Below are positions 1-13,400 of a DNA stretch of 13,400 nt, piece after piece. This stretch comes from a virus (lineage: Duplodnaviria; Heunggongvirae; Uroviricota; Caudoviricetes). The translations under genes and the position numbers were made by a program. How positions within the stretch are numbered: the stretch's first letter is position 1; each line of letters starts with the position of its first letter. The notes below the pieces were generated by a model. The model was not told the origin of the DNA. It did not search any database and was given only the letters and a program-made list of their open reading frames with translations. The DNA is taken from the IMG/VR virus record IMGVR_UViG_2565956633_000006; one strand, written 5' to 3'.

Positions 1-1284
1 TTACAGACTTCTGGAAGGTTGCGCAGCTCTTACAACACGCGGTTGATCTTCCGCGGCGTCTTCCAGCGCACTTAAATCACGGTCTTTCACTTCTGGCATT
101 TTCAGCGCAGAGATTAAACCAATCACTGAATATGCCATGATCATAATGGCGATCGGATACCAGGATTCCGTCATGGTGCAGAAAATACCCGCCAGGATAG
201 GACCAAAACCGGAAGCGATAAGACCACCAATTTCTTTAGAAATAGCCATCCGGGTAAAGCGGTTTTTACAGCCGAACATTTCTGCCATGGTAATATTTTC
301 CAGAGCAAATAATCCCAGCACCGCACAGTTATGAATCACAATCAGTGCAACCATAATGGTGCTCGGGGCATAGCTTTTATCTACGATGATAGAAAGCATT
401 GGCCATGCCAGCACAATCGCGGAGGTATTCATAATAATATACGGGATCCGGCGACCAATTTTATCGGATAACCAACCAAGGAACGGAATGGTCATAAAGC
501 CGAGAATCGAACTGATCATCAATGCATCTGTTGGAATTGCTTTGTTAAACAATAACGTCTGCACTAAATAGCCCGCAAGGAAAGTCTGAATTAAACCTGA
601 GTTACCCGCCTGACCAAAACGCAGCCCTGTTGCCAGCCAGAAGGATTTGCTCTGGAACATGCTACCAGCAGGTGCAGGTTTTGCTGTCGGTTGGTTGCTG
701 TCGTTAACCTTCTCAAAAACCGGGCTTTCTTTCAGATTCATACGCAACCAGATAGCAAAGACCATCACGACAACGCTCGCCAGGAACGGTATACGCCATC
801 CCCACGCCAGCAGTTCCTCTTTACTGAGAATGAAGAACATAAAGGCCCAGATTGCCGTTGCGCTTAAAGTTCCGCAGTTAGTTCCCATAGCCACAAATGA
901 GGAGATAATTCCGCGCTTACCTTTTGGCGCATATTCCGCCAGCATCGTACCGGCACCGGAAATTTCCGCACCTGCACCCAATCCCTGAATAATACGCAGC
1001 GTCACCAGCAAGATAGGGGCAAAAACACCAATCTGTGCATAGGTCGGTAACACACCAATTAAGGTGGTACAGATCCCCATCATGGTGATGGTAATAAAGA
1101 GCACTTTTTTACGCCCTATTCTGTCGCCCATTTTGCCGAAAATAAATGCTCCGACAATACGCGCCACATAACCTGCACCGTAGGTTCCCATTGCCAGAAT
1201 TAACGCCATTGCCGTTGATGATTCAGGAAAAAATATTTCATGAAACACTATCGCTGCGCCGAGCGAATATAACTGGAAATCCAT
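1..1284 (-). CDS. ydfJ: MFS (metabolite:H+ symporter family) transporter, N-terminally truncated at the prophage junction
   Basis: 427-aa ORF with many hydrophobic helices and GRK/R motifs typical of MFS. The product starts at MDFQLYSLG, aligning with the conserved (W)YDF..YG motif of MHS transporters, so about 25 N-terminal residues are missing. ATG at 1282-1284 has no convincing Shine-Dalgarno upstream. Stop at 1-3. Confidence 0.8.
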   Translation of the reverse strand: MDFQLYSLGAAIVFHEIFFPESSTAMALILAMGTYGAGYVARIVGAFIFGKMGDRIGRKKVLFITITMMGICTTLIGVLPTYAQIGVFAPILLVTLRIIQGLGAGAEISGAGTMLAEYAPKGKRGIISSFVAMGTNCGTLSATAIWAFMFFILSKEELLAWGWRIPFLASVVVMVFAIWLRMNLKESPVFEKVNDSNQPTAKPAPAGSMFQSKSFWLATGLRFGQAGNSGLIQTFLAGYLVQTLLFNKAIPTDALMISSILGFMTIPFLGWLSDKIGRRIPYIIMNTSAIVLAWPMLSIIVDKSYAPSTIMVALIVIHNCAVLGLFALENITMAEMFGCKNRFTRMAISKEIGGLIASGFGPILAGIFCTMTESWYPIAIMIMAYSVIGLISALKMPEVKDRDLSALEDAAEDQPRVVRAAQPSRSL

Positions 1285-1888
1285 AATTCACAGGTGTTTT
1301 TTCCCATCCTGTGGTTTCCTTGGCGTTTTCTAGGTTTTTTCAGATAGTTGCATTTTTTAAAAAGCATCCTAAGTTCGATCTCAGTGTCTATCTGGGGCCT
1401 ATTTCTGTCCCATATATGCCCCAAAAAAAACTCCCCAACAGATAAGTAGTTTTTTCATGGATTTATGCGTAAAATCAAGAACGGCTGGAAATCATTCAAT
1501 ACTCACACTATCGAAAAATTTACCAGCCAACCGCAGCACGTTCTTGCATAAGGCGTGTCTGCGGTTTTTCAACTATTCAGATACATCACTCCCATCACAT
1601 TCATTCCTCCGCATCAAAGGCATATAGGCTATATCACCTTGATATTTTTATTTTTCAGATAAAAACTGTTATCTATGTATACTTTTAAACCCAATCCGTG
1701 TAGAGTCTCTGCATAAGATAGTTTGCAGTTGCCGCTTCAGCTTGCGCCATAAACCGCCTGATTTTTGCTGCCACCTGTTAGCATTCCTGTATACCTGAAA
1801 CGACAATGTTTATCTACGAACTTTAAGAACACCCAAGATAAAAATTGTCAACTATATCATATATAACACATTACTAATTCGAGGCTAT

Positions 1889-2002
1889 ATGAACAGCATA
1901 CTGATAATCACATCTCTCCTTATCATATTCAGCATTTTTAGTCATGCCCTAATAAAATTAGGGATTGGCATATCCAATAACCCAGACAAAACCGATGTAT
2001 AA
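1889..2002 (+). CDS. Hypothetical 37-aa hydrophobic small protein ([37 protein letters not shown])
   Basis: ATG at 1889 preceded by GAGG at 1881-1884; single predicted transmembrane helix followed by a polar tail; stop TAA at 2000-2002. Below the ORF-track length cutoff; found by reading the DNA. Confidence 0.25.
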
Positions 2003-2070
2003 GTCAACATATCCTGAATCAGACATACAATATCGCAATGAAAATCAATAATATTTTAAGGAATATCTTC

Positions 2071-2304
2071 ATGAAATCAAAAGACACCCTAAAGTGGTTC
2101 CCTGCGCAGCTTCCTGAAGTAAGAATTATCCTAGGGGATGCTGTAGTGGAAGTAGCAAAACAGGGAAGACCTATCAATACCAGAACATTGCTTGATTACA
2201 TTGAAGGAAACATAAAGAAAAAATCATGGCTGGATAACAAAGAATTATTACAAACAGCGATATCAGTTCTTAAAGACAACCAAAATTTAAATGGTAAAAT
2301 GTAA
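2071..2304 (+). CDS. ydfK: Small prophage protein YdfK (YnaE paralog, cold-shock associated), 77 aa
   Basis: ORF 2038..2304; internal ATG at 2071 (MKSKDTLKWF...) has AAGGA 7 nt upstream, so 2071 is the likely start. Confidence 0.75.
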   Translation: MKSKDTLKWFPAQLPEVRIILGDAVVEVAKQGRPINTRTLLDYIEGNIKKKSWLDNKELLQTAISVLKDNQNLNGKM

Positions 2305-2620
2305 TATAATAAACTTACTTTTTTATCATTTTTCCACTTTAACAACATTTTGCTCCACTTTTCCACGACCAAACAACTTGAAATCTGGTTAAAATAACAC
2401 GCAACACTATTCTTCTTCCTTGAGTCCGCCCGGAACTCGAAAAACAAACCGAGTTAAAGCCATTTTTCACAAAATCGATTTTGGGTCTCACCAAAATTAC
2501 GGGGTTGCATACGCATTCGTTTATTTTCGAACGTGTACATACAAATATGCACAAAAATAATCAAAATTATTTTCTGAGATGCATTATGATATGAACACCA
2601 ATTTCGTATAGAGTCTCACT

Positions 2621-3211
2621 ATGTCTCGAATTTTTGCTTACTGTCGGATATCAACGCTGGATCAGACCACCGAAAATCAACGCCGGGAAATCGAAAGTGC
2701 AGGTTTTAAAATCAAACCTCAGCAAATAATCGAAGAACACATTAGCGGCTCAGCAGCAACCAGTGAGCGTCCTGGTTTTAACCGGTTGCTTGCTCGCCTG
2801 AAATGTGGTGATCAATTGATTGTGACAAAACTGGATCGCCTTGGTTGTAATGCAATGGATATCAGGAAAACAGTGGAACAACTGACCGAAACAGGTATCA
2901 GAGTGCATTGCTTAGCATTGGGGGGCATTGACCTGACCAGTCCAACAGGAAAAATGATGATGCAAGTAATTTCAGCAGTCGCTGAATTTGAACGAGACCT
3001 TTTACTTGAACGCACTCATTCCGGGATAGTAAGAGCCCGGGGCGCAGGGAAACGTTTTGGTCGACCACCTGTGTTAAATGAAGAACAGAAACAGGTGGTA
3101 TTCGAACGAATTAAGTCAGGTGTAAGTATAAGTGCCATTGCCCGGGAATTCAAAACCTCGCGGCAAACCATTTTAAGAGCCAAAGCAAAACTTCAGACAC
3201 CTGACATATAA
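2621..3211 (+). CDS. pinQ: Serine recombinase / DNA invertase (Gin/Hin/Pin family), 196 aa
   Basis: N-terminal [20 protein letters not shown] catalytic-serine motif and C-terminal helix-turn-helix ([23 protein letters not shown]), typical of Pin/Gin/Hin invertases. Confidence 0.95.
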
Positions 3212-3308
3212 AAAATAATCTCGGTGTGAGATGCTTTACGTCTTCCAAGCCACCTTCCTTGCCGTAAATGGAAAGATACATCTAATTATAGAATTTATAT
3301 GTTTTACC

Positions 3309-3884
3309 CTACGGCAGTGCTGGCCATTCAATATCCTGTGCAGTTGACGTATCAACACGGTTCAGCAATACCCGATACTTTTTCCATGCTTCCAGCAACG
3401 AGATTTCTTCCTCCGTTGCAATTTCCAGATCTGCAGCATCCTGAAGCGGCGCAATATGCTCACTGGCTACCTGCATCAGGCTGTTTTTTGTTTCTTCCGC
3501 CTCCCGGATCCGGAACAGTTTTTCTGCTTCCGTATCCTTCACCCAGGCTGTGCCGTTCCACTTCTGATATTCCCCTCCCGGCGATAACCAGGTAACATTT
3601 TCCGGTAACGGACCGAGTTCAGAAATAAATAACGCGTCGCCAGAAGCCACGTCATAAACCGTTTTACCCCGATGATCTTCAACGAGATGCCACGATGCCT
3701 CATCACTGTTGAAAACAGCCACGAAGCCTGCCGGAATATCTGGCGGTGCAATATCGATACTGTTTGCTGGCAGACCTGTATGAGGCGGAATATATGCGTC
3801 ACCTTCACCAATAAATTCATTAGTTCCGGCCAGCAGATTATAAATTTTTATGGTCCGTGGTTGTTCACTCATTCTGAATGCCAT
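3309..3884 (-). CDS. tfaQ: Tail fibre assembly protein (lambda Tfa-like), 191 aa
   Basis: Tfa-family product; start ATG overlaps the stf stop as TAATG at 3882-3886, indicating translational coupling. Confidence 0.9.
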
Positions 3885-4801
3885 TATGCAAGCCTCACAA
3901 TATAGTTAAATGCGATGTTTTTGACGGTGTTTTCCGCGTTACCAGCAGCGTTAACGGTGATGGTATGTCCATGTGAACCAATCGCAACGGAGTGCGTATG
4001 AGCACCAATACCGACAGTATGTGCGTGTGCACCTGCGCTTGCAGCAGTACCCGATACAGAGTGCGTATGAGCGCCTGCAGAAGAAGTGTTAACACTGTAT
4101 TTAGAATAATCAGGTGATCCACTTCCCGGAGCACCACTGGAACCACCTGAAACAAATGTCATCGAATGGGTATGTGCACCGGCTGAAGCAGCCGTACCGC
4201 TAACACTATGGGTATGCGCACCAGTGTTATTCGTGGATTTAGTGCCGTAATCAAACGACGATGTGGTTTTCGTCCCCAAATCCGTACTGGATACGCTGGC
4301 GCTGTGGGTGTGTGATTTAATGCCGTCCTGTTCCTGAGACAATACGGCTCGATCACTGGCGGGCTTGCCCTTAATCGTCCAGCCACGCATATCAGGGATC
4401 ACGCCTGACGGATAAGCGGCTGCAAGTTTCGGGTAAGCAGATTTGTCAAAAGTCTGCCCCTGCATCAGGGCATAACCAGACGGAACGGTATCTGATGGCC
4501 ACGGGATTGGTGCACCGACTGGATAAAACTCTGCAGGAGGATGAGCCGAGGTGTAAAGCTGCGCCCACGGCGACCAGTTTGCGTCGGTCGTATCCCGTCG
4601 TGAACGAATAAATGCCGGAGCATGAGCACCGCTTGTACCACTCCAGCCGATGAGTAACTCACCTTCGCCAACGGCTGTCATCCCTTTCAGGTGAATGATA
4701 TTTCCATACGCTGTTGGATATCCGTTGTTATACACCTCGTATAACTCAAGACCTGTTGCCCCCTGCGTATTGTCTGTCAGCGCGGTTACCCGCGTATCGT
4801 T
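3884..4801 (-). pseudogene. stfQ: Side tail fibre protein, C-terminal fragment (lambda Stf-like)
   Basis: Open frame from the stop at 4802-4804 down to the stop at 3884-3886, with no ATG near the 5' end (first start-like codon is GTG at 4733-4735, without an SD). Product carries repeated GAHTHS...[10 protein letters not shown] His-rich motifs and ends ...[11 protein letters not shown] as in lambda Stf. Confidence 0.85.
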
Positions 4802-4851
4802 TCATCGGCGCGGGCAATGGCAGCATCGAACAGGTTATCGGAATCAGCCAC
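4786..4851 (-). pseudogene. Remnant of lambda FII-like head-tail joining gene (first 21 codons only)
   Basis: GGGAGG followed by GTG GCT GAT TCC GAT AAC CTG TTC GAT GCT GCC ATT GCC CGC GCC GAT GAA ACG ATA CGC GGG TAA, i.e. [21 protein letters not shown], matching the lambda FII N-terminus ([21 protein letters not shown]) as I recall it. Start is GTG here, and the frame stops where the stf-derived sequence begins. Confidence 0.6.
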
Positions 4852-4862
4852 AGCGCCTCCCG

Positions 4863-5258
4863 TTATTGCATTCTGGCCAGGCCATGTTCTGTCATTTCGG
4901 CTGCCACACCGGCAGAGACACGAAACGCCGTTCCCGGCAGCACAAATGCCACAGGCTCATCCCGCGTGGCGTGAAGTGCATCAGTATGCAGCGTCACCAG
5001 TGCCACGACCGTGACCAGAGCAGCCGTATCAATCACGGTATCCGGCTGCGCTGATACCACCTCATTTTCATGTCCGGTCAGCGCATTTTCCGGGCTGACA
5101 GATGTGTCCTGACCGGCAGCGTCATCCGTGTCATCAAGCTCCTCTTCCAGCTCTGCCACACGGAGCACCAGTTCTTCTTTCGTCCCCGTCAGGCTGACAT
5201 CACGGTTCAGTTGCTCACCCAGCACCTGAAGACGGGCAATCAGTTCATCTTTCGTCAT
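4863..5258 (-). CDS. Lambda FI-like DNA packaging protein, 131 aa
   Basis: Product from the internal ATG at 5256-5258 (MTKDELIARLQVLGEQLNRDVSLTGTKEEL...) matches lambda gpFI; strong SD (GGAGGAG) upstream. The longer ORF-track start at 5297 lacks an SD. Confidence 0.85.
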   Translation of the reverse strand: MTKDELIARLQVLGEQLNRDVSLTGTKEELVLRVAELEEELDDTDDAAGQDTSVSPENALTGHENEVVSAQPDTVIDTAALVTVVALVTLHTDALHATRDEPVAFVLPGTAFRVSAGVAAEMTEHGLARMQ

Positions 5259-5279
5259 GGACTCCTCCACAGAGAGAAA

Positions 5280-5297
5280 ATGGCCCCGAAGGGCCAT
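5280..5297 (-). terminator. GC-rich hairpin between the E remnant and FI (ATGGCCC-TTCG-GGGCCAT on the minus strand, then TTTCTCTCT)
   Basis: Perfect 7-bp stem with a 4-nt loop, followed by a U-rich tract on the coding (minus) strand; could act as attenuator or mRNA stabiliser. Confidence 0.35.
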
Positions 5298-5299
5298 GA

Positions 5300-5866
5300 T
5301 TACGCCAGTTGTACGGACACGAACGCATCAGGATCAGCCAGCAGCATCAGCGGTGCTGACTGAATCATGGTGAACTCACGCGCCGGATCGCCGGTGGTCA
5401 CCCAGTTTTTCGGGTAGCGGGCAGAGGCGTTAATACCTTCGCGCTGTGCGTCCGCATCCTGAATGCAGCCATAGGTGCGCAGACCGCGTGCCTGAGTGTT
5501 CCCCAGCACCATCGTGTTGTCCGGCAGGAAGTTCTTTTTGACGTCGTTTTCCACGTACTGTCCGGAATACACGACGATCGCCGTATCGCCATACATCCCC
5601 TTATAGGACACCGCTTCGCCCAGGTCTTTTACCGCTGTCTCCAGCTCGGAATTAGAGCCGCGACGGGTATCCAGCTTCTCCTTGACGGCTTTGAAGGAAC
5701 GGAACAGCGCCCAGCCTTTCGGATCAAACACGATGATATTCACCACGCCGCTGGCGTTCAGCGCGTAGGCTTCGATATCGTCGGTCGGGTCATACGTGGA
5801 CTTGTCACGCTTGCTCCACTCCGTGCCGCCGGACTGCGTGATGTTGTTCGCCGCACTGCGGCCCAT
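5300..5866 (-). pseudogene. Major capsid protein (lambda gpE-like), C-terminal remnant of about 188 codons
   Basis: Product ends ...NTMVLGNTQARGLRTYGCIQDADAQREGINASARYPKNWVTTGDPAREFTMIQSAPLMLLADPDAFVSVQLA, matching the C-terminus of lambda E; the 5' half is absent and replaced by the Nu1-like gene. Confidence 0.85.
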
Positions 5867-6372
5867 ATCAGTTCATCCAGCGCGGCTGCTTTGTTCATGG
5901 CTTTGATGATATCCCGTTTCAGGAAATCAACATGTCGGTTTTCCAGTTCCGGAAAACGCCGCTGCACCGACAGGGGGATCCCGTCGAGAATACTGGCAAT
6001 TTCACCTGCGATCCGCGACAGCACGAAAGTACAGAATGCGGTTTCCACCACTTCAGCGGAGTCTCTGGCATTTTTCAGCTCCTGTGCGTCGGCCTGCGCA
6101 CGCGTAAGTCGATGGCGTTCGTACTCAATAGTCCCTGGCTGGAGATCTGTCTCGCTGGCCTGCCGCAGTTCTTCAACTTCCCGGCGCAGCTTTTCGTTCT
6201 CAATTTCAGCATCCCTTTCGGCATACCATCTTATAACGGCGGCAGAGTCATAAAGCACCTCATTACCCTTGCCACCGCCTCGCAGAACGGGCATTCCCTG
6301 TTCCTGCCAGTTCTGAATGGTACGGATACTCGCACCGAAAATGTCAGCCAGCTGCTTTTTGTTGACTTCCAT
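5758..6372 (-). CDS. nohA: Terminase small subunit Nu1 homolog with altered C-terminus (fusion to out-of-frame capsid-gene sequence)
   Basis: First ~168 aa (MEVNKKQLADIFGASIRTIQNWQEQGMPVLRGGGKGNEVLYDSAAV...) match lambda Nu1 nearly residue for residue; the tail (..WAAVRRTTSRSPAARSGASVTSPRMTRPTISKPTR) is read from E-derived DNA in another frame. Confidence 0.85.
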   Translation of the reverse strand: MEVNKKQLADIFGASIRTIQNWQEQGMPVLRGGGKGNEVLYDSAAVIRWYAERDAEIENEKLRREVEELRQASETDLQPGTIEYERHRLTRAQADAQELKNARDSAEVVETAFCTFVLSRIAGEIASILDGIPLSVQRRFPELENRHVDFLKRDIIKAMNKAAALDELIWAAVRRTTSRSPAARSGASVTSPRMTRPTISKPTR

Positions 6373-6620
6373 TGTTCATTCCACGGCCAAAAACAGAGAA
6401 AGGAAACGACAGAGGCCCAAAAGCTCGTTTTCAGCACCTGTCGTTTCCTTTCTTTTCAGGGGGTATTTTAAATAAAAACATTAAGTTACGACGAAGAAGA
6501 ACGGAAATGCCTTAAACCGGAAAATTTTCATAAATAGCGAAAACCCGCGAGGTCGCCGCCCCGTAACCTGTCGGATCGCCGGAAAGGACCCGCAAAATGA
6601 TAATAATTATCATCTGCATG
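6373..6620 (-). other. Lambda-type cos packaging site (cosN 12-nt cohesive end at 6550..6561, with cosB toward nohA and cosQ on the other side)
   Basis: Reverse complement of 6481-6563 reads GGGGCGGCGACCTCGCGGGTTTTCGCTATTTATGAAAATTTTCCGGTTTAAGGCATTTCCGTTCTTCTTCGTCGTAACTTAA, nearly identical to the lambda left end as I recall it, including cohesive end GGGCGGCGACCT. Confidence 0.8.
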
Positions 6621-6760
6621 TCACAACGTGCATCTACGCCATCAAACCACGTCAAATAATCAATTATGACGCAGATATCGTATTAATTGATCTGCATCAA
6701 CTTAACGTAAAAACAACTTCAGACAATACAAATCAGCGACACTGAATACGGGACAACCTC

Positions 6761-6994
6761 ATGTCAACGAAGAACAGAACCCGCAGAACAACAACCCGCA
6801 ACATCCGCTTTCCTAACCAAATGATTGAACAAATTAACATCGCTCTTGAGCAAAAAGGGTCCGGGAATTTCTCAGCCTGGGTCATTGAAGCCTGCCGCCG
6901 GAGACTGTGCTCAGAAAAAAGAGTTTCTTCTGAAGCAAACAAAGAAAAGAGTGACATTACTGAATTGCTCAGAAAACAGGTCAGACCAGATTGA
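6761..6994 (+). CDS. ynfO: Small ribbon-helix-helix-like protein, 77 aa (lambda right-end ORF homolog)
   Basis: Basic N-terminus (MSTKNRTRRTTTRN) followed by IRFPNQMIEQINIALEQKGSGNFSAWVIEACRRRL, which has the beta-strand/helix/helix pattern of RHH (Arc/CopG) DNA-binding domains; sits beside cos as in lambda. Confidence 0.75.
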   Translation: MSTKNRTRRTTTRNIRFPNQMIEQINIALEQKGSGNFSAWVIEACRRRLCSEKRVSSEANKEKSDITELLRKQVRPD

Positions 6995-7051
6995 AGCAAT
7001 TTAGATAATCGTGCAGACTACGCCCCCTCATATCACATGGAAGGTTTATCT

Positions 7052-7462
7052 ATGGATCAGGTAGTCATTTTTAAACAAATATTTGATAAAGTTCGAAACG
7101 ATTTAAACTATCAATGGTTTTATTCTGAGCTAAAACGTCACAATGTCTCACATTACATTTACTATTTAGCCACAGAGAATGTTCATATTGTATTAAAAAA
7201 TGATAATACAGTGTTATTAAAGGGCCTAAAAAACATTGTGTCTGTCAAATTTTCAAAGGATAGGCATCTTATAGAAACGACCTCTAATAAGCTGAAATCC
7301 AGAGAGATCACATTTCAGGAATACAGAAGAAACCTTGCTAAAGCAGGAGTTTTTCGGTGGGTTACAAATATCCACGAACAAAAAAGATATTACTATACCT
7401 TTGATAATTCATTACTATTTACTGAAAGCATCCAGAAAACTACACAGATCTTACCACGCTAA
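7052..7462 (+). CDS. ydfO: DUF1398-family protein (YbcV/YdfO family), 136 aa
   Basis: ORF 7037..7462; second ATG at 7052 ([14 protein letters not shown]...) has GGAAGG 7 nt upstream and is the likely start. Confidence 0.8.
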
Positions 7463-7470
7463 ACCATAAC

Positions 7471-7499
7471 GTCCGGCTTCTCTCACTCCTGAGCCGGAC
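7471..7499 (+). terminator. Hairpin downstream of ydfO (GTCCGGCT ... AGCCGGAC)
   Basis: 8-bp GC-rich inverted repeat with a 13-nt loop, 9 nt after the ydfO stop; no clean U-tract, so function uncertain. Confidence 0.3.
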
Positions 7500-7613
7500 T
7501 GCATTGGTTTAATAAAAACCATCAACAATTGTGATTTAGATATTCGGAACCATTCAAATATAACAAAACCCCGTAAAAACGAGGTTTATGGATAAATTTT
7601 ATTATTGAATACA

Positions 7614-7787
7614 TCAGATTAAATTAATCTTGACATCATAGCTTTCAAGACCCGTCATTTTTTCCCGTGCGGTAAACTGAATACTGGTAACTTCTTTCCC
7701 GGTCTTTTTCTTAAGTTCAATAATTTTTTTTGTTATATATTCAGAAATATCTGCTTCTGCTTTTGTTTTTAAGTTTTCAATATTCAT
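7614..7787 (-). CDS. gnsB: GnsB-like small protein, 57 aa (MNIENLKTKAEADISEYITKKIIELKKKTGKEVTSIQFTAREKMTGLESYDVKINLI)
   Basis: Absent from the ORF track (under 60 aa); translated by hand from the minus strand. ATG at 7785-7787 with GAGGAA upstream; product resembles GnsA/GnsB. Confidence 0.8.
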   Translation of the reverse strand: MNIENLKTKAEADISEYITKKIIELKKKTGKEVTSIQFTAREKMTGLESYDVKINLI

Positions 7788-7958
7788 CATTTCCTCTTTT
7801 AGTCTGTTATGACTTTCCAGTTACACAGTAAGTCGATTATATGGTGCAAACGTGTAAAAGATAAGATGAAACATCGCAATAATCAACATACGATAGTCTA
7901 AATTTTACACAAACAGACAAAGAAAATTTTCCTGAATTATCAATACAATAGCATCAAA

Positions 7959-8114
7959 TCAACTCAAGAGCCTTATTGCTGCTTCCAGAATTTCTTCTGA
8001 AGTAACATGTCGATCCGCGGCTACATAAATGACTTTATGATCTCCGGTCAGAGATGGAAACCCTGCGGCCATTACAGTAAGGTGTGTTTTTTCGCCATTT
8101 GGATATTCACGCAT
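7959..8114 (-). CDS. ynfN: Small prophage protein YnfN-like (51 aa from ATG 8112-8114); start uncertain
   Basis: ORF track gives 7959..8231 (90 aa, TTG start). In-frame ATGs lie at 8189 and 8114; the 8114 start has GGAG about 11 nt upstream. A strong minus-strand terminator at 8233-8253 sits immediately upstream of the longest form. Confidence 0.5.
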   Translation of the reverse strand: MREYPNGEKTHLTVMAAGFPSLTGDHKVIYVAADRHVTSEEILEAAIRLLS

Positions 8115-8232
8115 GATGGTGTTAACTCCAGTCATCGCTGGCACTACCACTGCAGGTTCAGAGTTAAAAAAAACTATGATTTTTTTCATGATGTTACCGT
8201 AGTATGTGAGTATCCATCGAATAGATACCAAG

Positions 8233-8253
8233 CAAAAAAGCTCCCGAAGGAGC
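8233..8253 (-). terminator. Rho-independent terminator (GCTCC-TTCG-GGAGC followed by TTTTTT on the minus strand)
   Basis: Perfect 5-bp GC stem, tetraloop, then six U residues on the minus-strand transcript; about 205 nt downstream of the cspI stop. Confidence 0.6.
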
Positions 8254-8460
8254 CTTCATTTTCACTTTTTTAAATCCAACGACAGACGGCTGGCATTTAA
8301 GTATTGTGAAATATTATCAAATGTAATCATCATTGATTTACAAAAGATACATTTTGCCCCGAAAGGATTCATGTCAGAAACATCAAAAGATGATGTTCTA
8401 TACTGGGAACCATGACAACACGGGCATCTAAAGTGAATATGGTTTGTAATATTGTCTACC

Positions 8461-8673
8461 TCAAAGCGCCACTACATGAACAGCGGCAGGACCTTTAGGT
8501 CCGTTCTCAATACCAAATTCAACTTCCTGATTCTCAGTTAATGTTTTGAAATCGTTGCTCTGAATTGCTGAGAAATGGACAAACACATCTTTGCTGCCAT
8601 CTTTCGGCGTGATGAAACCAAAACCTTTTTCAGGGTTAAACCATTTCACTAAACCAGTCATTTTGTTAGACAT
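8461..8673 (-). CDS. cspI: Cold-shock protein CspI (CspA family), 70 aa
   Basis: [38 protein letters not shown]... with RNP1 (KGFGFI) and RNP2 (VFVHF) motifs; long leader region upstream. Confidence 0.95.
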
Positions 8674-9037
8674 AATTATTACCTTTTGAAGAAATTAGCC
8701 CTTGGGCAGAATGGTCCGAAAAAAAAATATCAGAGAGAAAAACCAACAAGGAAATCTCAAGAGGTACAAATAATAAAATTATAACAATGACTGCTTCAGA
8801 TAAATTTGTAACAAACCAGAACACCATTAACGCATGATTAACCACCCATAGCAAGGATTACTTTTGTAAAGAAAAACACAGCAATGAAAGAATAGCTTTA
8901 TTTATTAATAATAACGTGTCATTCTGATTAAGACCTTTTATCTTACCCTTAAGATTTCAGGAATTTTGGCTCATGGAAGAGTCCTTTTTATTTAAATTTT
9001 ACATTCCGCGATGTAAATGTTCCGATTTAATATTACC

Positions 9038-10061
<1,024 letters not shown>

Positions 10062-10065
<4 letters not shown>

Positions 10066-10373
10066 ATATATTTATGATGAGGACGCTCGTGCTTATTGGC
10101 AGGATTTTCAATCTTAAAGGAGTACTGATGCTGCAGATAAGACTCAACTTTTTCTGACAATTTTTCTGCTACTTCCAGGAAGACTTGCCGGACGCTCCTT
10201 CTGGCTGCTGCCTCATAAAACTCCAGCGCAGCTCCTTCAACACGGTCCATGGCGACATCCAGGTCAAAAATTTCACCGTCAAAGCGTTCTTTGTCCTGTA
10301 AGGCTACAGTTACCGTAACTTTATTCTCAAAATTACGGACTCCTTTCACAACCAGTTCATAGTCTTGAGTCAT
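10062..10373 (-). CDS. ydfR: Uncharacterised protein inserted between holin and endolysin (DUF1327 family), 103 aa
   Basis: Intact ORF, 4 nt after the holin stop and overlapping the endolysin start (ATGA); acidic, predicted soluble. Confidence 0.8.
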
Positions 10374-10377
10374 TGGA

Positions 10378-10593
10378 TTACTCTCCTCTCGCAGCCTTAC
10401 GCCTGTCTTCTTTAATCTTGAAATAAAGATTTGTCAGATACGTCAGCAGGCCAAAAACCAGGCTACCCAGCACACCGATTGCAGCCCACTGTGACGGAGT
10501 TACTTTATCGAGTAACTGCAATGCCCAGAAACCAGCATTACCCGCCGATGTGCCATAGGCAACACCTGTTGTTAACTTATCCATTGATTTCAT
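10378..10593 (-). CDS. essQ: Class II holin / pinholin (phage 21 S-like), 71 aa with dual-start motif
   Basis: [71 protein letters not shown] resembles S21; Met1-Lys-Ser-Met4 dual start; GAGG SD upstream of the ATG at 10591-10593. The longer track ORF (to 10668) is upstream read-through. Confidence 0.9.
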
Positions 10594-10812
10594 ATCCTCA
10601 CCCCGATGTACACGGATGGTGCAATATGTTTGAAAAGATCGGAGTCTACGGGGTAGTTTTGACAGCACACGTTGTTCTCAACGGCGCTAAAAAAACATAC
10701 ACATTAAAAATGTGGGTAATTATTTTGAAAGAAAGTCATATATAAAATAATAATACGAGAAATGTTTTCATATTTAGTGTACTGTATACGGCCATTTATA
10801 CAGGAAAAGCCT

Positions 10813-10983
10813 ATGTCAGAACGTAAAAACTCAAAATCACGCCGTAATTATCTCGTTAAATGTTCCTGCCCAAACTGCACCCAAGAGTCAGAACACAGTT
10901 TTTCAAGAGTACAAAAAGGTGCCCTTTTGATCTGCCCTCATTGCAACAAAGTATTCCAGACAAATCTTAAAGCTGTAGCCTGA
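10813..10983 (+). CDS. ynfU: Small zinc-ribbon protein, 56 aa (MSERKNSKSRRNYLVKCSCPNCTQESEHSFSRVQKGALLICPHCNKVFQTNLKAVA); possibly ynfU
   Basis: ATG at 10813 with AGGA 7 nt upstream; two Cys pairs (C-x-C-P-x-C and C-P-x2-C) form a putative zinc ribbon; basic N-terminus. Symbol assigned from memory of a Qin small zinc-binding protein, not verified. Confidence 0.5.
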   Translation: MSERKNSKSRRNYLVKCSCPNCTQESEHSFSRVQKGALLICPHCNKVFQTNLKAVA

Positions 10984-11040
10984 TTGATTTTATTAGTAAC
11001 AAGTATTTTTTATATTTTAATAATATATTTAAAGCAGATA

Positions 11041-11065
11041 ATAAAAAACCCGCCTGAGCGGGTTT
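11041..11065 (-). terminator. Rho-independent terminator (AACCCGC-TCAG-GCGGGTT followed by TTTTTTAT on the minus strand); weakly bidirectional
   Basis: 7-bp GC-rich stem with tetraloop and a U-tract on the minus-strand transcript; downstream of cspB and convergent with the zinc-ribbon ORF. Confidence 0.6.
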
Positions 11066-11346
11066 GAGATTGTGGTGCTTTTTGTGGGAGTCATCCACTT
11101 ACGCACTTTGTTTTGCCATGCCAGCAGTTAGCTTCTGCTGTAAAACTATTCATGCAGCAAACCTGCACTTCACCACAATGGTTAGCATACTTTTCCTGAT
11201 TAAGATTTTGCCAAATATGCTAGCCATTGTTTCATGTATTGGACCTCCTTACTTTTTATTAAAGAGATCCAATATTCACTACTCTGTCCGTATCTCTACT
11301 CAGGCATCAGCCTTCTTCGTTATCGTATACAGACGAGCGATGAATT

Positions 11347-11562
11347 TTAATCAGTAATGATGACATTTGCTGCTGCAGGACCTTTAGCACCACTCTCTAT
11401 AGAGAAGGTAACCTTTTGACCTTCAAATAAGGTTCGATAATTATCATTCTGAATCGCAGAAAAATGCACAAACACATCTTTACTACCATCAACAGGAGAA
11501 ATAAAGCCGAAACCTTTATCAGCGTTAAACCATTTTACTAAACCAGTCATTTTATTTGACAT
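11347..11562 (-). CDS. cspB: Cold-shock protein CspB (CspA family), 71 aa
   Basis: [38 protein letters not shown]...; AAGGA SD 7 nt upstream of the ATG at 11560-11562. Confidence 0.95.
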
Positions 11563-11862
11563 TCTACATTCCTTAACTTGAGCCTTTCGGCATAAATGGT
11601 TTGCATAACAGAAACGACTTCGTACTTAATTGGAGAGACTCAAAGAAGGAATAAGTGAATAACACCTGAAATGAGAACTGCTTTAGTAAACTACTTCGTA
11701 TATCGTCTGTTCTTCAAACCGACGCAATCATTAACGCATAGTTGAACATATGAAGCAATGTTTATTTTAGACATCCAGCCATCTTCAACCCCATCAAAAA
11801 ACTATAGCTTTCTTCAGGAACGTGTGTATAGTGCGCCAAGTTATCAGTATTAAGGAATTTTT
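11563..11862. promoter_or_regulatory. Divergent cspB/cspF control region (promoters and long 5' leaders)
   Basis: 300-bp AT-rich spacer between divergently oriented csp genes; contains a repeated ACTTCGTA motif (11615-11626 and 11691-11705) in the expected cspB leader. CspA-family genes are known to carry long regulatory 5' UTRs. Confidence 0.5.
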
Positions 11863-12075
11863 TTGTCCCGTAAAATGACAGGAATTGTCAAAACCTTTGA
11901 CGGCAAAAGCGGCAAGGGTCTTATCACCCCATCCGATGGTCGTATCGATGTCCAGCTTCATGTCTCAGCGCTCAATCTCCGCGATGCAGAAGAAATTACC
12001 ACCGGATTACGCGTGGAATTTTGCCGGATAAATGGTCTGCGTGGCCCTTCAGCTGCCAATGTTTACCTTTCATGA
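11863..12075 (+). CDS. cspF: CspA-family paralog CspF, 70 aa, with degenerate nucleic-acid-binding motifs; probable TTG start
   Basis: [38 protein letters not shown]...; start codon at 11863 is TTG with AAGGA 6 nt upstream; RNP1/RNP2 aromatic residues are replaced (KGKGLI, VQLHV). Confidence 0.9.
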
Positions 12076-12361
12076 GCTATATTAAAGCTTTAATTTCAGG
12101 CCCCATCGGATCACACATGGAGAGTTTTTATGAATAACCCCGTCTGTCTTGATGACTGGTTGATTGGCTTTAAAAGCTTATGCTGTACTTTGGCCGTAAT
12201 AGCTCTGCTAATAATATAATAAGCAGACTCATTGTGTTTAGGGACATTGTACTGGAAGAAAACATTTTAAACATCAGGCAAATAACCAAGTCACCAGCTA
12301 AATAATAAGTTAACAGACATGAGTCCCGGGATGAGATTCAACATTACCATTGCCCCATTTA

Positions 12362-12400
12362 AAGCACAAAACCCGCTCATCAGCGGGTTTTCTACTTTTT
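12362..12400. terminator. Bidirectional rho-independent terminator (AAACCCGCT-CATC-AGCGGGTTT with T-rich flanks on both strands); candidate tR'
   Basis: 9-bp stem; the plus strand continues TCTACTTTTT and the minus-strand transcript continues TTTTGTGCTTT. Confidence 0.6.
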
Positions 12401-12436
12401 CTTAACGTCGGGTATACAAAGCCCATCGTTGAAAAA

Positions 12437-12465
12437 ATTTTATCCATATTTTTTGAAAAATGCAA
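12437..12465 (-). promoter_or_regulatory. Candidate sigma70 late promoter (pR'-like): -35 TTGCAT, 17-bp spacer, -10 TAAAAT, on the minus strand
   Basis: Hexamers read from the minus strand just downstream of the quuQ stop; a terminator hairpin lies about 40-60 nt downstream, as in lambdoid pR'/tR' units. Confidence 0.35.
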
Positions 12466-12496
12466 ACATCATGTCGCCATCTTCAGCAAAAATCAT

Positions 12497-13249
12497 TTAT
12501 CTCGTCACCTTCCTCAATTGCGCTTCCGCGTATGCTTCTTCCTGCCAGCACTTTGTTACCAGTTTACCAATGACGTCCGCATACCCCTTATACCACTGAT
12601 AATCGGTCAGGTCTGGTACCAGCTTCTGGACATGACGTCGTGCCAGCGTGGTCGGTAAACGACTAAACCGGTTTCCATTACAACGCCCACAAATCTTATA
12701 TACCGGTACGCCATGAAACCGGGTTCTTTTTTCATCCAGAACAATCCCTTTACCCTTACACCCTCTGCACGCTGTGCTGGCTTCGCCCTTACCATGGCAA
12801 TGCTGACATAGTTCCTTCACCCATTCTTCCTTGATTACAGATTCCCCGCGTCTGTAGTGTTTCACCACTTCGCGCAATACATTATAAAATCCCGTACCTG
12901 AACAATGCTCACAGCGAGCCTTACTTGCCGCAGACCTGGAGTAATCAGCAAAGGCAAAACTCACGAGGTAAGGAATAATCTGTAACCGGATTTCTTCACT
13001 CAATTTGTTCAATGTCGGGTTATCCAGTGCCATCGCGTAATTTAGCAGGCCTTCAATCGCAAACTGAGGGTCCTGAACACCAACTTTTGCCAGAAATAAG
13101 GCCAACCCAAGTGGTGCTTTCGACTGCACCATCCCCTGCGCTGCCATTACATCCGTAATTGTTAAACAACCGGTGCCTGTCGCTGGAGCGTCATCGCTCA
13201 ATTTTGGAGATTTTGGGGAGTAATATTTTGGTAAGGCTTCAAGGTTCAT
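12497..13249 (-). CDS. quuQ: Late-gene antiterminator Q-like protein, 250 aa
   Basis: Cys-rich zinc-binding region (CEHCSGTG...CQHCHGKG...CRGCKGKG...CGRCNG) typical of phage Q antiterminators; ATG at 13247-13249 has GGAG 7 nt upstream. The track start at 13279 is TTG with no SD. Confidence 0.9.
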   Translation of the reverse strand: MNLEALPKYYSPKSPKLSDDAPATGTGCLTITDVMAAQGMVQSKAPLGLALFLAKVGVQDPQFAIEGLLNYAMALDNPTLNKLSEEIRLQIIPYLVSFAFADYSRSAASKARCEHCSGTGFYNVLREVVKHYRRGESVIKEEWVKELCQHCHGKGEASTACRGCKGKGIVLDEKRTRFHGVPVYKICGRCNGNRFSRLPTTLARRHVQKLVPDLTDYQWYKGYADVIGKLVTKCWQEEAYAEAQLRKVTR

Positions 13250-13262
13250 GCTCGTTCTCCAC

Positions 13263-13400
13263 TTACGCCAGTACGCCAATTGCCAGCGCGCGATCGATAA
13301 AACGAAATATCAGCTCCAGTTGGGAGCCATACTTATCTTCAAATGCCACTGTATCCGTATGCAGCTCGTTGTGATGCTTTCTGCACAAAGGCAACACAAA
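13263..13400 (-). CDS. ydfU: 3' end of a ydfU-like prophage gene (partial; 5' end beyond window)
   Basis: Open minus-strand frame to the window edge ending ...FVLPLCRKHHNELHTDTVAFEDKYGSQLELIFRFIDRALAIGVLA with stop at 13263-13265, 13 nt upstream of the quuQ start. The C-x2-HH-x3-H pattern is HNH-like. Confidence 0.6.
   Translation of the reverse strand, partial: FVLPLCRKHHNELHTDTVAFEDKYGSQLELIFRFIDRALAIGVLA

Follow-up and report, generated by a model that had tools for sequence, protein, structure and literature searches.

A deletion scar joining FII to stf in the Qin prophage of an Escherichia coli lineage, and recurrent TA breakpoints in decayed lambdoid prophages

Introduction

The stretch of DNA analyzed here (13,400 bp, IMG/VR record IMGVR_UViG_2565956633_000006; referred to below as the window) contains an unusual arrangement on its minus strand: a lambda-type FI gene is followed by the beginning of FII, which ends at a TAA after 21 codons, and the sequence then continues in another frame as the distal part of the side tail fibre gene stf. 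How did the start of FII come to lie next to the end of stf, and does the joint stand alone or does it resemble other breakpoints in related prophages? An original prediction, made from the sequence alone, had proposed that a single deletion took out what follows in FII, every tail gene and the beginning of stf, and comparison with an intact relative supports this, since exactly 14,159 bp are missing. Both fragments are indeed FII- and stf-derived; their parent is the Qin prophage and not lambda proper. On the basis of the results described here, the joint (hereafter D1) is very probably a deletion scar in the Qin prophage of one E. coli lineage, with an ancestor essentially identical to the Qin of strain ATCC 8739, and it probably belongs to a class of junctions with a TA core that may arise by site-preferring cutting and rejoining.

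Results

The scar lies in Qin, and a near-complete counterpart exists

The window corresponds to the right arm of the cryptic prophage Qin of Escherichia coli. It has the Qin insertion in the host gene ydfJ, a fragment of which (1-1284, minus strand) marks the integration site, and the Qin gene order is found on both sides. E. coli ATCC 8739 has a near-complete Qin at the same ydfJ site (locus L006), with the head and tail genes from nohA to stf all present. When the window was compared with L006 by blastn, three collinear blocks and nothing else were obtained: window 1-4792 with L006 34860-30069 (99.9% identity, 5 mismatches), 4787-5869 with 15915-14833 (100%, 1,083 bp) and 5866-13400 with 8939-1407 (99.7%). 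The two loci are therefore 99.7-100% identical and collinear save for two clean deletions, D1 and D2. D1 loses L006 15916-30074 (14,159 bp), beginning in FII codon 22 and ending at stf codon 706/707; between the flanks of the scar ATCC 8739 keeps the rest of FII, Z, U, V, G, T, H, M, L, K, I, J, lom and stf codons 1-705. The flanks of D1 are 100% and 99.9% collinear with this one intact reference, in the same orientation and with no insert, as expected of a simple deletion. Continuous homology to a single gene across 4775-4862, which would have spoken against the deletion, was looked for and not found.

The same comparison bears on the possibility that the scar was imported by homologous recombination from another lambdoid prophage that was already scarred. 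Lambdoid prophages do swap segments, similar scars are present at other loci (beside avs2 in strain W137 and at the lambda attachment site in PCP06171), and the FI/FII alleles of Qin differ by up to 6% between strains. However, the whole 13.4-kb window minus its deletions is 99.7-100% identical to the ATCC 8739 Qin without any change of divergence near the joint, and in the nearest other FII-stf scar both the stf endpoint and the FI allele differ from those of the window. Import is thus very improbable, and a deletion in place from an ATCC 8739-like Qin is preferred.

It was also observed that Z (L006 16216-16792) is annotated as frameshifted even in the 'complete' Qin of ATCC 8739, the only such gene there; the parent type was therefore probably already defective in tail assembly.

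The D1 joint at base resolution

Alignment to the base placed the joint at FII+65 and stf+2122 (window 4792-4787) and revealed a microhomology of 6 bp, CGGGTA (4787-4792, minus strand), which is FII bases 60-65 as well as stf bases 2116-2121 and within which the crossover occurred. The parental sites read GAAACGATACG CGGGTA CATGGGAACG in FII and TCAAAAGGT CGGGTA ACCGCGCTGAC in stf, and the joint in the window reads GAAACGATACG CGGGTA ACCGCGCTGAC. The identity is exactly 6 bp, the bases beyond it differ on either side and there is no filler. Junctional identity of at least 6 bp is expected by chance with a probability of ∼0.0013, and an identity of this short length is what illegitimate recombination leaves. 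No direct repeats of tens of bases, as in a RecA-type homologous deletion, were found at the ends of D1, and the joint itself has no insertion sequence (IS) or IS end, no extra DNA and no promoter or terminator.

In FII the six bases start at the last base of codon 20, take in codon 21 and end two bases into codon 22, whereas in stf they are codons 706-707; because they are placed differently relative to the codons of the two genes, the reading frame shifts at D1. The TAA that ends the FII fragment was made by the deletion and is found in neither parent: its TA comes from FII Tyr22 (TAC) or stf Val707 (GTA) and its final A from stf Thr708 (ACC). The deletion also created a 14-nt palindrome, CGCGG-GTAA-CCGCG (CGCGGGTAACCGCG; 4781-4794, minus strand), which is absent from both parents and whose halves, CGCGGGTA on the FII (left) side and TAACCGCG on the stf (right) side, are near mirror images. 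As single-stranded DNA it is predicted to fold into a hairpin of -7 kcal/mol (z = -3.4), whereas neither parental site folds. Selection for an immediate stop at the joint was considered and rejected, as it would hold for D1 only and not for the W137, Z or nohA joints described below.

In an ancestor essentially like ATCC 8739 Qin, a break-and-join between FII bases 60-65 and stf bases 2116-2121 removed the 14,159 bp with nothing added, probably by RecA-independent illegitimate recombination.

Remnants on either side of the joint

The FII remnant (FII') is an open reading frame at 4786-4851 (minus strand), with a GTG start at 4851-4849, 21 sense codons and the joint-made TAA at 4788-4786, which agrees with the original reading of this region as a lambda-type FII start followed by stf in another frame. 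The supposed replacement of ATG by GTG was an error: the start codon of lambda FII in the reference record is itself GTG, and in intact prophages RefSeq likewise places the start of FII at this GTG. The native ribosome-binding site GGGAGG (4856-4861, minus strand) is kept and is identical in lambda, and the GTG lies 11 nt past the FI stop; N-terminal sequence, ribosome-binding site and a start directly 3' of FI are all those of a lambda-type FII. In the encoded peptide, 20 of the 21 residues agree with lambda FII and all 21 with ATCC 8739 FII. The sole difference from lambda, F4S, is already present in the intact ATCC 8739 gene and was therefore inherited from the parent allele. Along window 5869-4787 (lambda 6591-7676, 95.8% identity) nucleotide homology to lambda continues unbroken over E, FI and FII as far as base 65, and it ends exactly there. 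FII encodes the head-tail joining protein; with 21 of 117 codons retained, the Phage_attach domain (PF05354, ∼99 positions) is incomplete, the intact homologue matching it over residues 8-105. FII' is a remnant and not a gene.

On the other side, the stf remnant (stf', 3884-4792, minus strand) consists of codons 706-1007 of a 1007-codon gene (302 codons) and has lost its start. Its frame is one base off that of FII' and is open to the stop at 3886-3884; the longest open reading frame (3884-4735) begins at an internal GTG. The C-terminal part of Stf is recognizable from Pfam Collar (1.6e-12) and Phage_fiber (4.4e-07) matches followed by tfa, with tfaQ overlapping the stf stop by one base at 3884, whereas phage_tail_N (residues 1-134 of the intact 1007-aa product) and the gene's own start are absent. 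No nucleotide match to window 4517-4786 was found in lambda stf (orf-401/orf-314); this segment is the Qin/mEp460-type stf allele, identical (100%) in the ATCC 8739 Qin and in many other prophages. Lambda homology resumes only at 4516 (lambda 21245, orf-314), and from there downward stf' and tfa match lambda orf-314/tfa at 86-94% identity. Near 4522-4557 a mosaic boundary with the stf allele of strain 1303 was noted. The 21-codon 'gene' and the 283-298-aa 'tail fibre' frames called here are thus remnants.

A second deletion, and the distribution of both

About 1 kb from D1, the second deletion (D2) has removed 5,897 bp, comprising the end of nohA, A, W, B, C, D and the 5' part of E (to codon 153). 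Its joint, GATA (5866-5869, minus strand), corresponds to nohA bases 508-511 and E bases 457-460. What remains of E, the major capsid gene, is a 3' fragment (5300-5869, minus strand) from base 457 to the stop, window 5869 being L006 14833 and E+457. Across the joint runs a nohA'-E' fusion frame of 204 aa (5758-6372, minus strand), in which NohA residues 1-170 are followed by an out-of-frame read through E'; gene callers label it a Phage_Nu1 protein.

The exact fusion protein was found on 14 public contigs, and each of the five fetched loci long enough to include D1 has the exact 41-mer across it. In total, no fewer than five independent sources (assemblies or read sets) contain the exact D1 joint: GCA_018185155.1, GCA_000485735.1, GCA_054724625.1, GCA_048087345.1 and the Logan assembly of run ERR3832102. 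GCA_000485735.1 is identical to the window (100% over 13,400 bp), and three other sources, including the read-set assembly, are 99.97-99.99% identical. Among 5,426 complete E. coli genomes, neither D1 nor D2 was found, together or alone, and the exact D1 joint was not found in the Genome Taxonomy Database (GTDB) species representatives (one genome per species). The scar is real, inherited and confined to a small lineage. Since D1 and D2 are shared by a few assemblies and absent from the complete genomes, the pair makes a useful lineage marker.

These data leave practically no chance that D1 is an assembly or sequencing artefact joining distant prophage parts. Misassembly is a risk in genomes that hold several lambdoid prophages, but the exact joint recurs in four NCBI assemblies and an independent Logan assembly, and an overlap of 6 bp is far below assembler k-mer sizes. 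They also bear on the number of steps. Earlier deletions nested inside the lost interval could have preceded the single final joint; for example, Z+90 might first have been joined to stf+2122 (an 8-bp identity, TAACCGCG), and a further 0.4 kb between FII+65 and that earlier joint lost afterwards. Both routes end in the same sequence, scars from Z+90 to stf+2122 do exist (L004 and L133), and a joint should be used again if its half-sites keep their activity once a first event has taken place. However, no intermediate with the window's alleles was found, and the Z-stf scars that are known diverge from the window by 4-5% on their FI/FII flank. Moreover, identity is 6 bp for the direct route but 2 bp for the second step, and no complete genome has D1 alone or D2 alone. 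Two or more nested steps are therefore improbable, and we continue with D1 as one deletion between FII+65 and stf+2122.

Breakpoints recur at shared TA dinucleotides

Joints of other decayed prophages were mapped onto the intact Qin of ATCC 8739 (loci L001-L005, L016, L028-L050 and L071-L139; L006 sites nohA+511, A+245, E+186, FII+65, Z+90, L+10, stf+2122 and stf+2186). Both ends of D1 and the left end of D2 turned out to be used repeatedly. FII+65 (CGGGTA before the break) has at least three partners: stf+2122 in the window, stf+2186 in W137 (another locus with a different FI allele) and a third stf allele in an IMG/VR contig (L035). At least seven partners were found for stf+2122 (break between TA and ACCGCGCTGAC), namely A+245, E+187, E+854, FII+65, Z+90 and two unmapped sequences. 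The left end of D2, nohA+511 (CTGATA before the break), has at least nine right-hand partners: A+1779, E+457, J+1802 (the K-12 Qin), Z+90, lom+356 and four other tail-fibre or J alleles. Finally, Z+90 (CCATTA before the break) has at least seven, these being the lom end, stf+2122, stf+2164, L+10, an inverted stf segment, an inverted prophage early region and one unmapped sequence.

Altogether, ∼20 distinct deletion or inversion joints cross inside a shared TA in a context resembling CGG-N-TA-N-CCG, with sites re-used and the nohA-J joint of the K-12 Qin among them, and the intact partner has TA at the breakpoint in every case where it could be read. Where the neighbours of the TA differ between the partners, the base before TA in the product is that of the left partner and the base after it that of the right partner (GTAT in W137; TTAT in the joint of Z with L+10, L030); the exchange is therefore confined to the dinucleotide. 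In two IMG/VR contigs Z+90 is joined to inverted DNA: a reversed stf-to-Z segment (L028, position 7597) and a reversed prophage early region with Ash, CII and a CI-like repressor (L029, position 1724). The same sites thus also take part in inversions. A second class of ∼15 junctions with ordinary identities (GAAG, CAGC, CTG, TCCC, ACCG or none) is present in the same prophages.

The sequence around the used sites is also non-random. GGNTA occurs at 12 of 23 distinct used TA sites compared with 88 of the 703 TAs in the region (p = 5e-6), C stands two bases after TA at 14 of the 23, and in 7 of 23 versus 66 of 703 the next position is C as well, giving CC (p = 0.004). The consensus of used sites is C-G-G-(A/T/G)-T-A-(T/A/C)-C-(G/C)-G, and the used sites include 5 of the 12 perfect GGNTANCC sites that the 23-kb late region contains.

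Generic microhomology or a site-preferring process?

Alternatively, D1 could be a generic microhomology deletion, by slippage or alternative end joining at CGGGTA, in which case the shared breakpoints would reflect chance, ascertainment and common descent. Perfect identity of 6 bp without filler is the classical signature of such an event, the ∼15 ordinary-identity junctions occur in the same prophages, and the BLAST matches first used were ranked by coverage, which favours junctions near those of the window. We nevertheless consider this explanation unlikely on the basis of samples in which loci were not chosen by their joints. Of the pairs of identical k-mers (2-6 bp) in the 23-kb late region, only 1.4-8% contain TA. 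Among loci fetched via the NohA protein, however, 7 of 15 joints cross in a shared TA, where ∼3-8% would be expected for identities of 3-6 bp (p ∼3e-4 even at an expectation of 10%); TA joints are about ten-fold over-represented in such samples. Similarly, 49 contigs were fetched via an stf anchor 26 bp downstream of the site; 40 were collinear for at least 600 bp upstream and nine were broken, six of them within the 10-bp stretch stf+2119-2129 and four exactly at TA. Moreover, the GG upstream of TA in the right-hand partners is on the side that is lost in the product, and it is therefore not accounted for by identity with the left partner. The use of the same sites in inversions also speaks against the generic explanation.

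Several points weigh against a site-preferring process. The 6-bp identity alone suffices for ordinary short-homology recombination, and D1 needs no special enzyme. Several of the hot-spot scans were anchored on TA-ending sequences, so that only junctions at those sites could be found, and the sample is mostly one species with related prophages that recombine with each other. Some of the recurrent junctions may be sequential derivatives of one another and not independent events. In addition, no candidate enzyme was found to fit the TA joints.

The preferred interpretation remains that D1 belongs to the TA-core class. Exchange would take place inside a TA shared by both partners, the left one supplying the base before it and the right one the base after it, which looks like site-preferring cutting and rejoining with a 2-bp stagger rather than random slippage. 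A 2-bp palindromic core, roughly symmetric flanks, recurrence, the occurrence of both deletions and inversions and the fact that nothing is left behind together suggest a dimeric enzyme that would make cuts with a 2-nt stagger and join the ends again, either in the manner of a serine recombinase or as a nuclease whose TA ends are ligated. More tentatively, a hitherto undescribed process of this kind might delete and invert lambdoid prophage DNA within a shared TA between CGG-N and N-CCG half-sites, and might be a main route by which head and tail genes are stripped in E. coli while the lysis, cold-shock, tfa and pin modules are kept; the joint of nohA with J in the K-12 Qin would be another of its products.

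As a single scar, D1 is ordinary prophage decay, a new allele of a well-known kind of event, and it adds little beyond a further documented decay state of Qin; only the recurrent TA-core breakpoints came as a surprise. If decay in E. coli does proceed largely via a few TA sites in a common sequence context, prophage domestication would be channelled by a specific DNA-breaking or recombining activity and not be random erosion; the activity could be sought genetically, and the deletion history of Qin, and probably of DLP12 and Rac, would become predictable.

Neighbouring genes and other decayed prophages

With all tail genes gone, the prophage cannot make tails, and D2 has removed most head genes; the D1 scar itself is probably without function. 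Three genes of the vicinity are left intact. FI, the DNA packaging protein gene (4863-5258, minus strand, 131 aa; Packaging_FI, 2.1e-50), ends with the TAA at 4865-4863. The tail fibre assembly gene tfaQ (3309-3884, minus strand, 191 aa) matches Caudo_TAP (9.8e-43), and the serine invertase gene pinQ (2621-3211, plus strand, 196 aa) has Resolvase and HTH_7 domains. The genes around the D1 scar are on the minus strand, with pinQ on the opposite one. The FI allele is extremely common: in an index of public assemblies the exact protein occurs in 22,322 blocks, with intact head and tail genes adjoining it in all ten places shown; FI is also intact in other heavily deleted prophages (1303, PSJ-16, PCP06171 and W137). 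PinQ was reported to invert the P segment of e14 and thereby to block adsorption of phage T2 (PMC12529663), which may be a reason why the tfa/pin end of Qin has been kept while the tail genes were lost.

Qin varies in size from 11 to 97 kb among strains (PMC6379469), and its scars are correspondingly diverse: from Z' to the lom end in strain 1303, from Z' to stf in PSJ-16, from FI' to stf in EC26, and from nohA to J and from J to stf in the K-12 type. Strain 1303 or EC26 was rejected as a source of the direct ancestor, since the FI/FII flank is only 93.8% identical and the stf allele differs upstream of 4522. E. coli W137 (L001, 3741408-3754343) has another decayed lambdoid prophage, located by an Avs2 defence gene, in which FII is cut at the same base as in the window; it is joined to stf 64 bp further in, and the prophage has its own deletion between A' and E'. 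The sequence would allow the W137 scar to be a 64-bp secondary deletion of the window's scar, but its FI allele is that of 1303 and PCP06171 and not the window's.

Comparison with known systems

The K-12 Qin (Kim), with its size variants among strains, is one of the closest known systems. It occupies the same ydfJ site and has the same flanking genes (ydfK, pinQ, tfaQ, nohA, ynfO, ydfO, gnsB, cspI, rzpQ, rrrQ, essQ, cspB, cspF and ydfT). It differs in that nohA-to-J and J-to-stf are lost (nohA+511 joined to J+1802, J+2104 to stf+2723), whereas the window's allele keeps E', FI and FII' with the joints nohA+511 to E+457 and FII+65 to stf+2122.

A number of enzymes were examined as possible agents. 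The canonical Pin site is TTCTCCCAAACC AA GGTTT..., and the e14 pix repeat is CCTTCTCCCAAACCAA (PMC12529663). We compared the parental sites of D1, GATACGCGGG TA CATGGG and AAGGTCGGG TA ACCGCG, with pix. The invertases Pin, Gin, Hin and Cin were rejected, as their 26-bp site with inverted ...AAACC NN GGTTT... half-sites is unlike both the D1 joint and its parents; no inverted repeat matching the Pin site was found around stf', tfaQ and pinQ (window 2400-5000). IS30 makes a 2-bp duplication and has near-palindromic hot spots (PMC9333248), with one lambda hot spot at 33.29 kb. It was rejected because neither that hot spot nor the K-12 IS30C target, where CT is duplicated in an unrelated context, resembles CGGNTANCCG. 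No IS was found at hot-spot junctions in the fetched loci, IS30 being absent from all of them, and no insertions with a TA duplication were found at the hot spots in the ∼130 loci. The Rpn nucleases were rejected, as they are reported to lack sequence specificity. The hybrid TA flanks (GTAT in W137, TTAT in L030) argue for a 2-bp core and would fit poorly the 4-bp stagger at cleavage sites that subunit exchange by a type II topoisomerase such as gyrase should give. In the literature, no description of TA-specific illegitimate recombination in prophages was found.

Two further known systems are close to what was observed. Short-homology illegitimate recombination in E. coli has been studied with lambda Spi- and bio transducing phages. 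D1 is like it in having an identity of a few bases, no filler, a large deletion and an outcome RecA-independent in kind. No preference of this pathway for TA or a palindromic context is known; here, by contrast, the partners recur and share the context resembling CGG-N-TA-N-CCG. The dependence of such recombination on short homology in E. coli has been described (PMC3375238, PMC11372144). The other is the group of recombinases and transposases that cut with a 2-bp stagger, that is, serine recombinases such as PinQ, and IS30. They resemble the TA joints in their 2-bp core and roughly symmetric, recurrent sites, and since the core is palindromic, both deletions and inversions occur. The likeness to these enzymes is one of working mode and not of membership.

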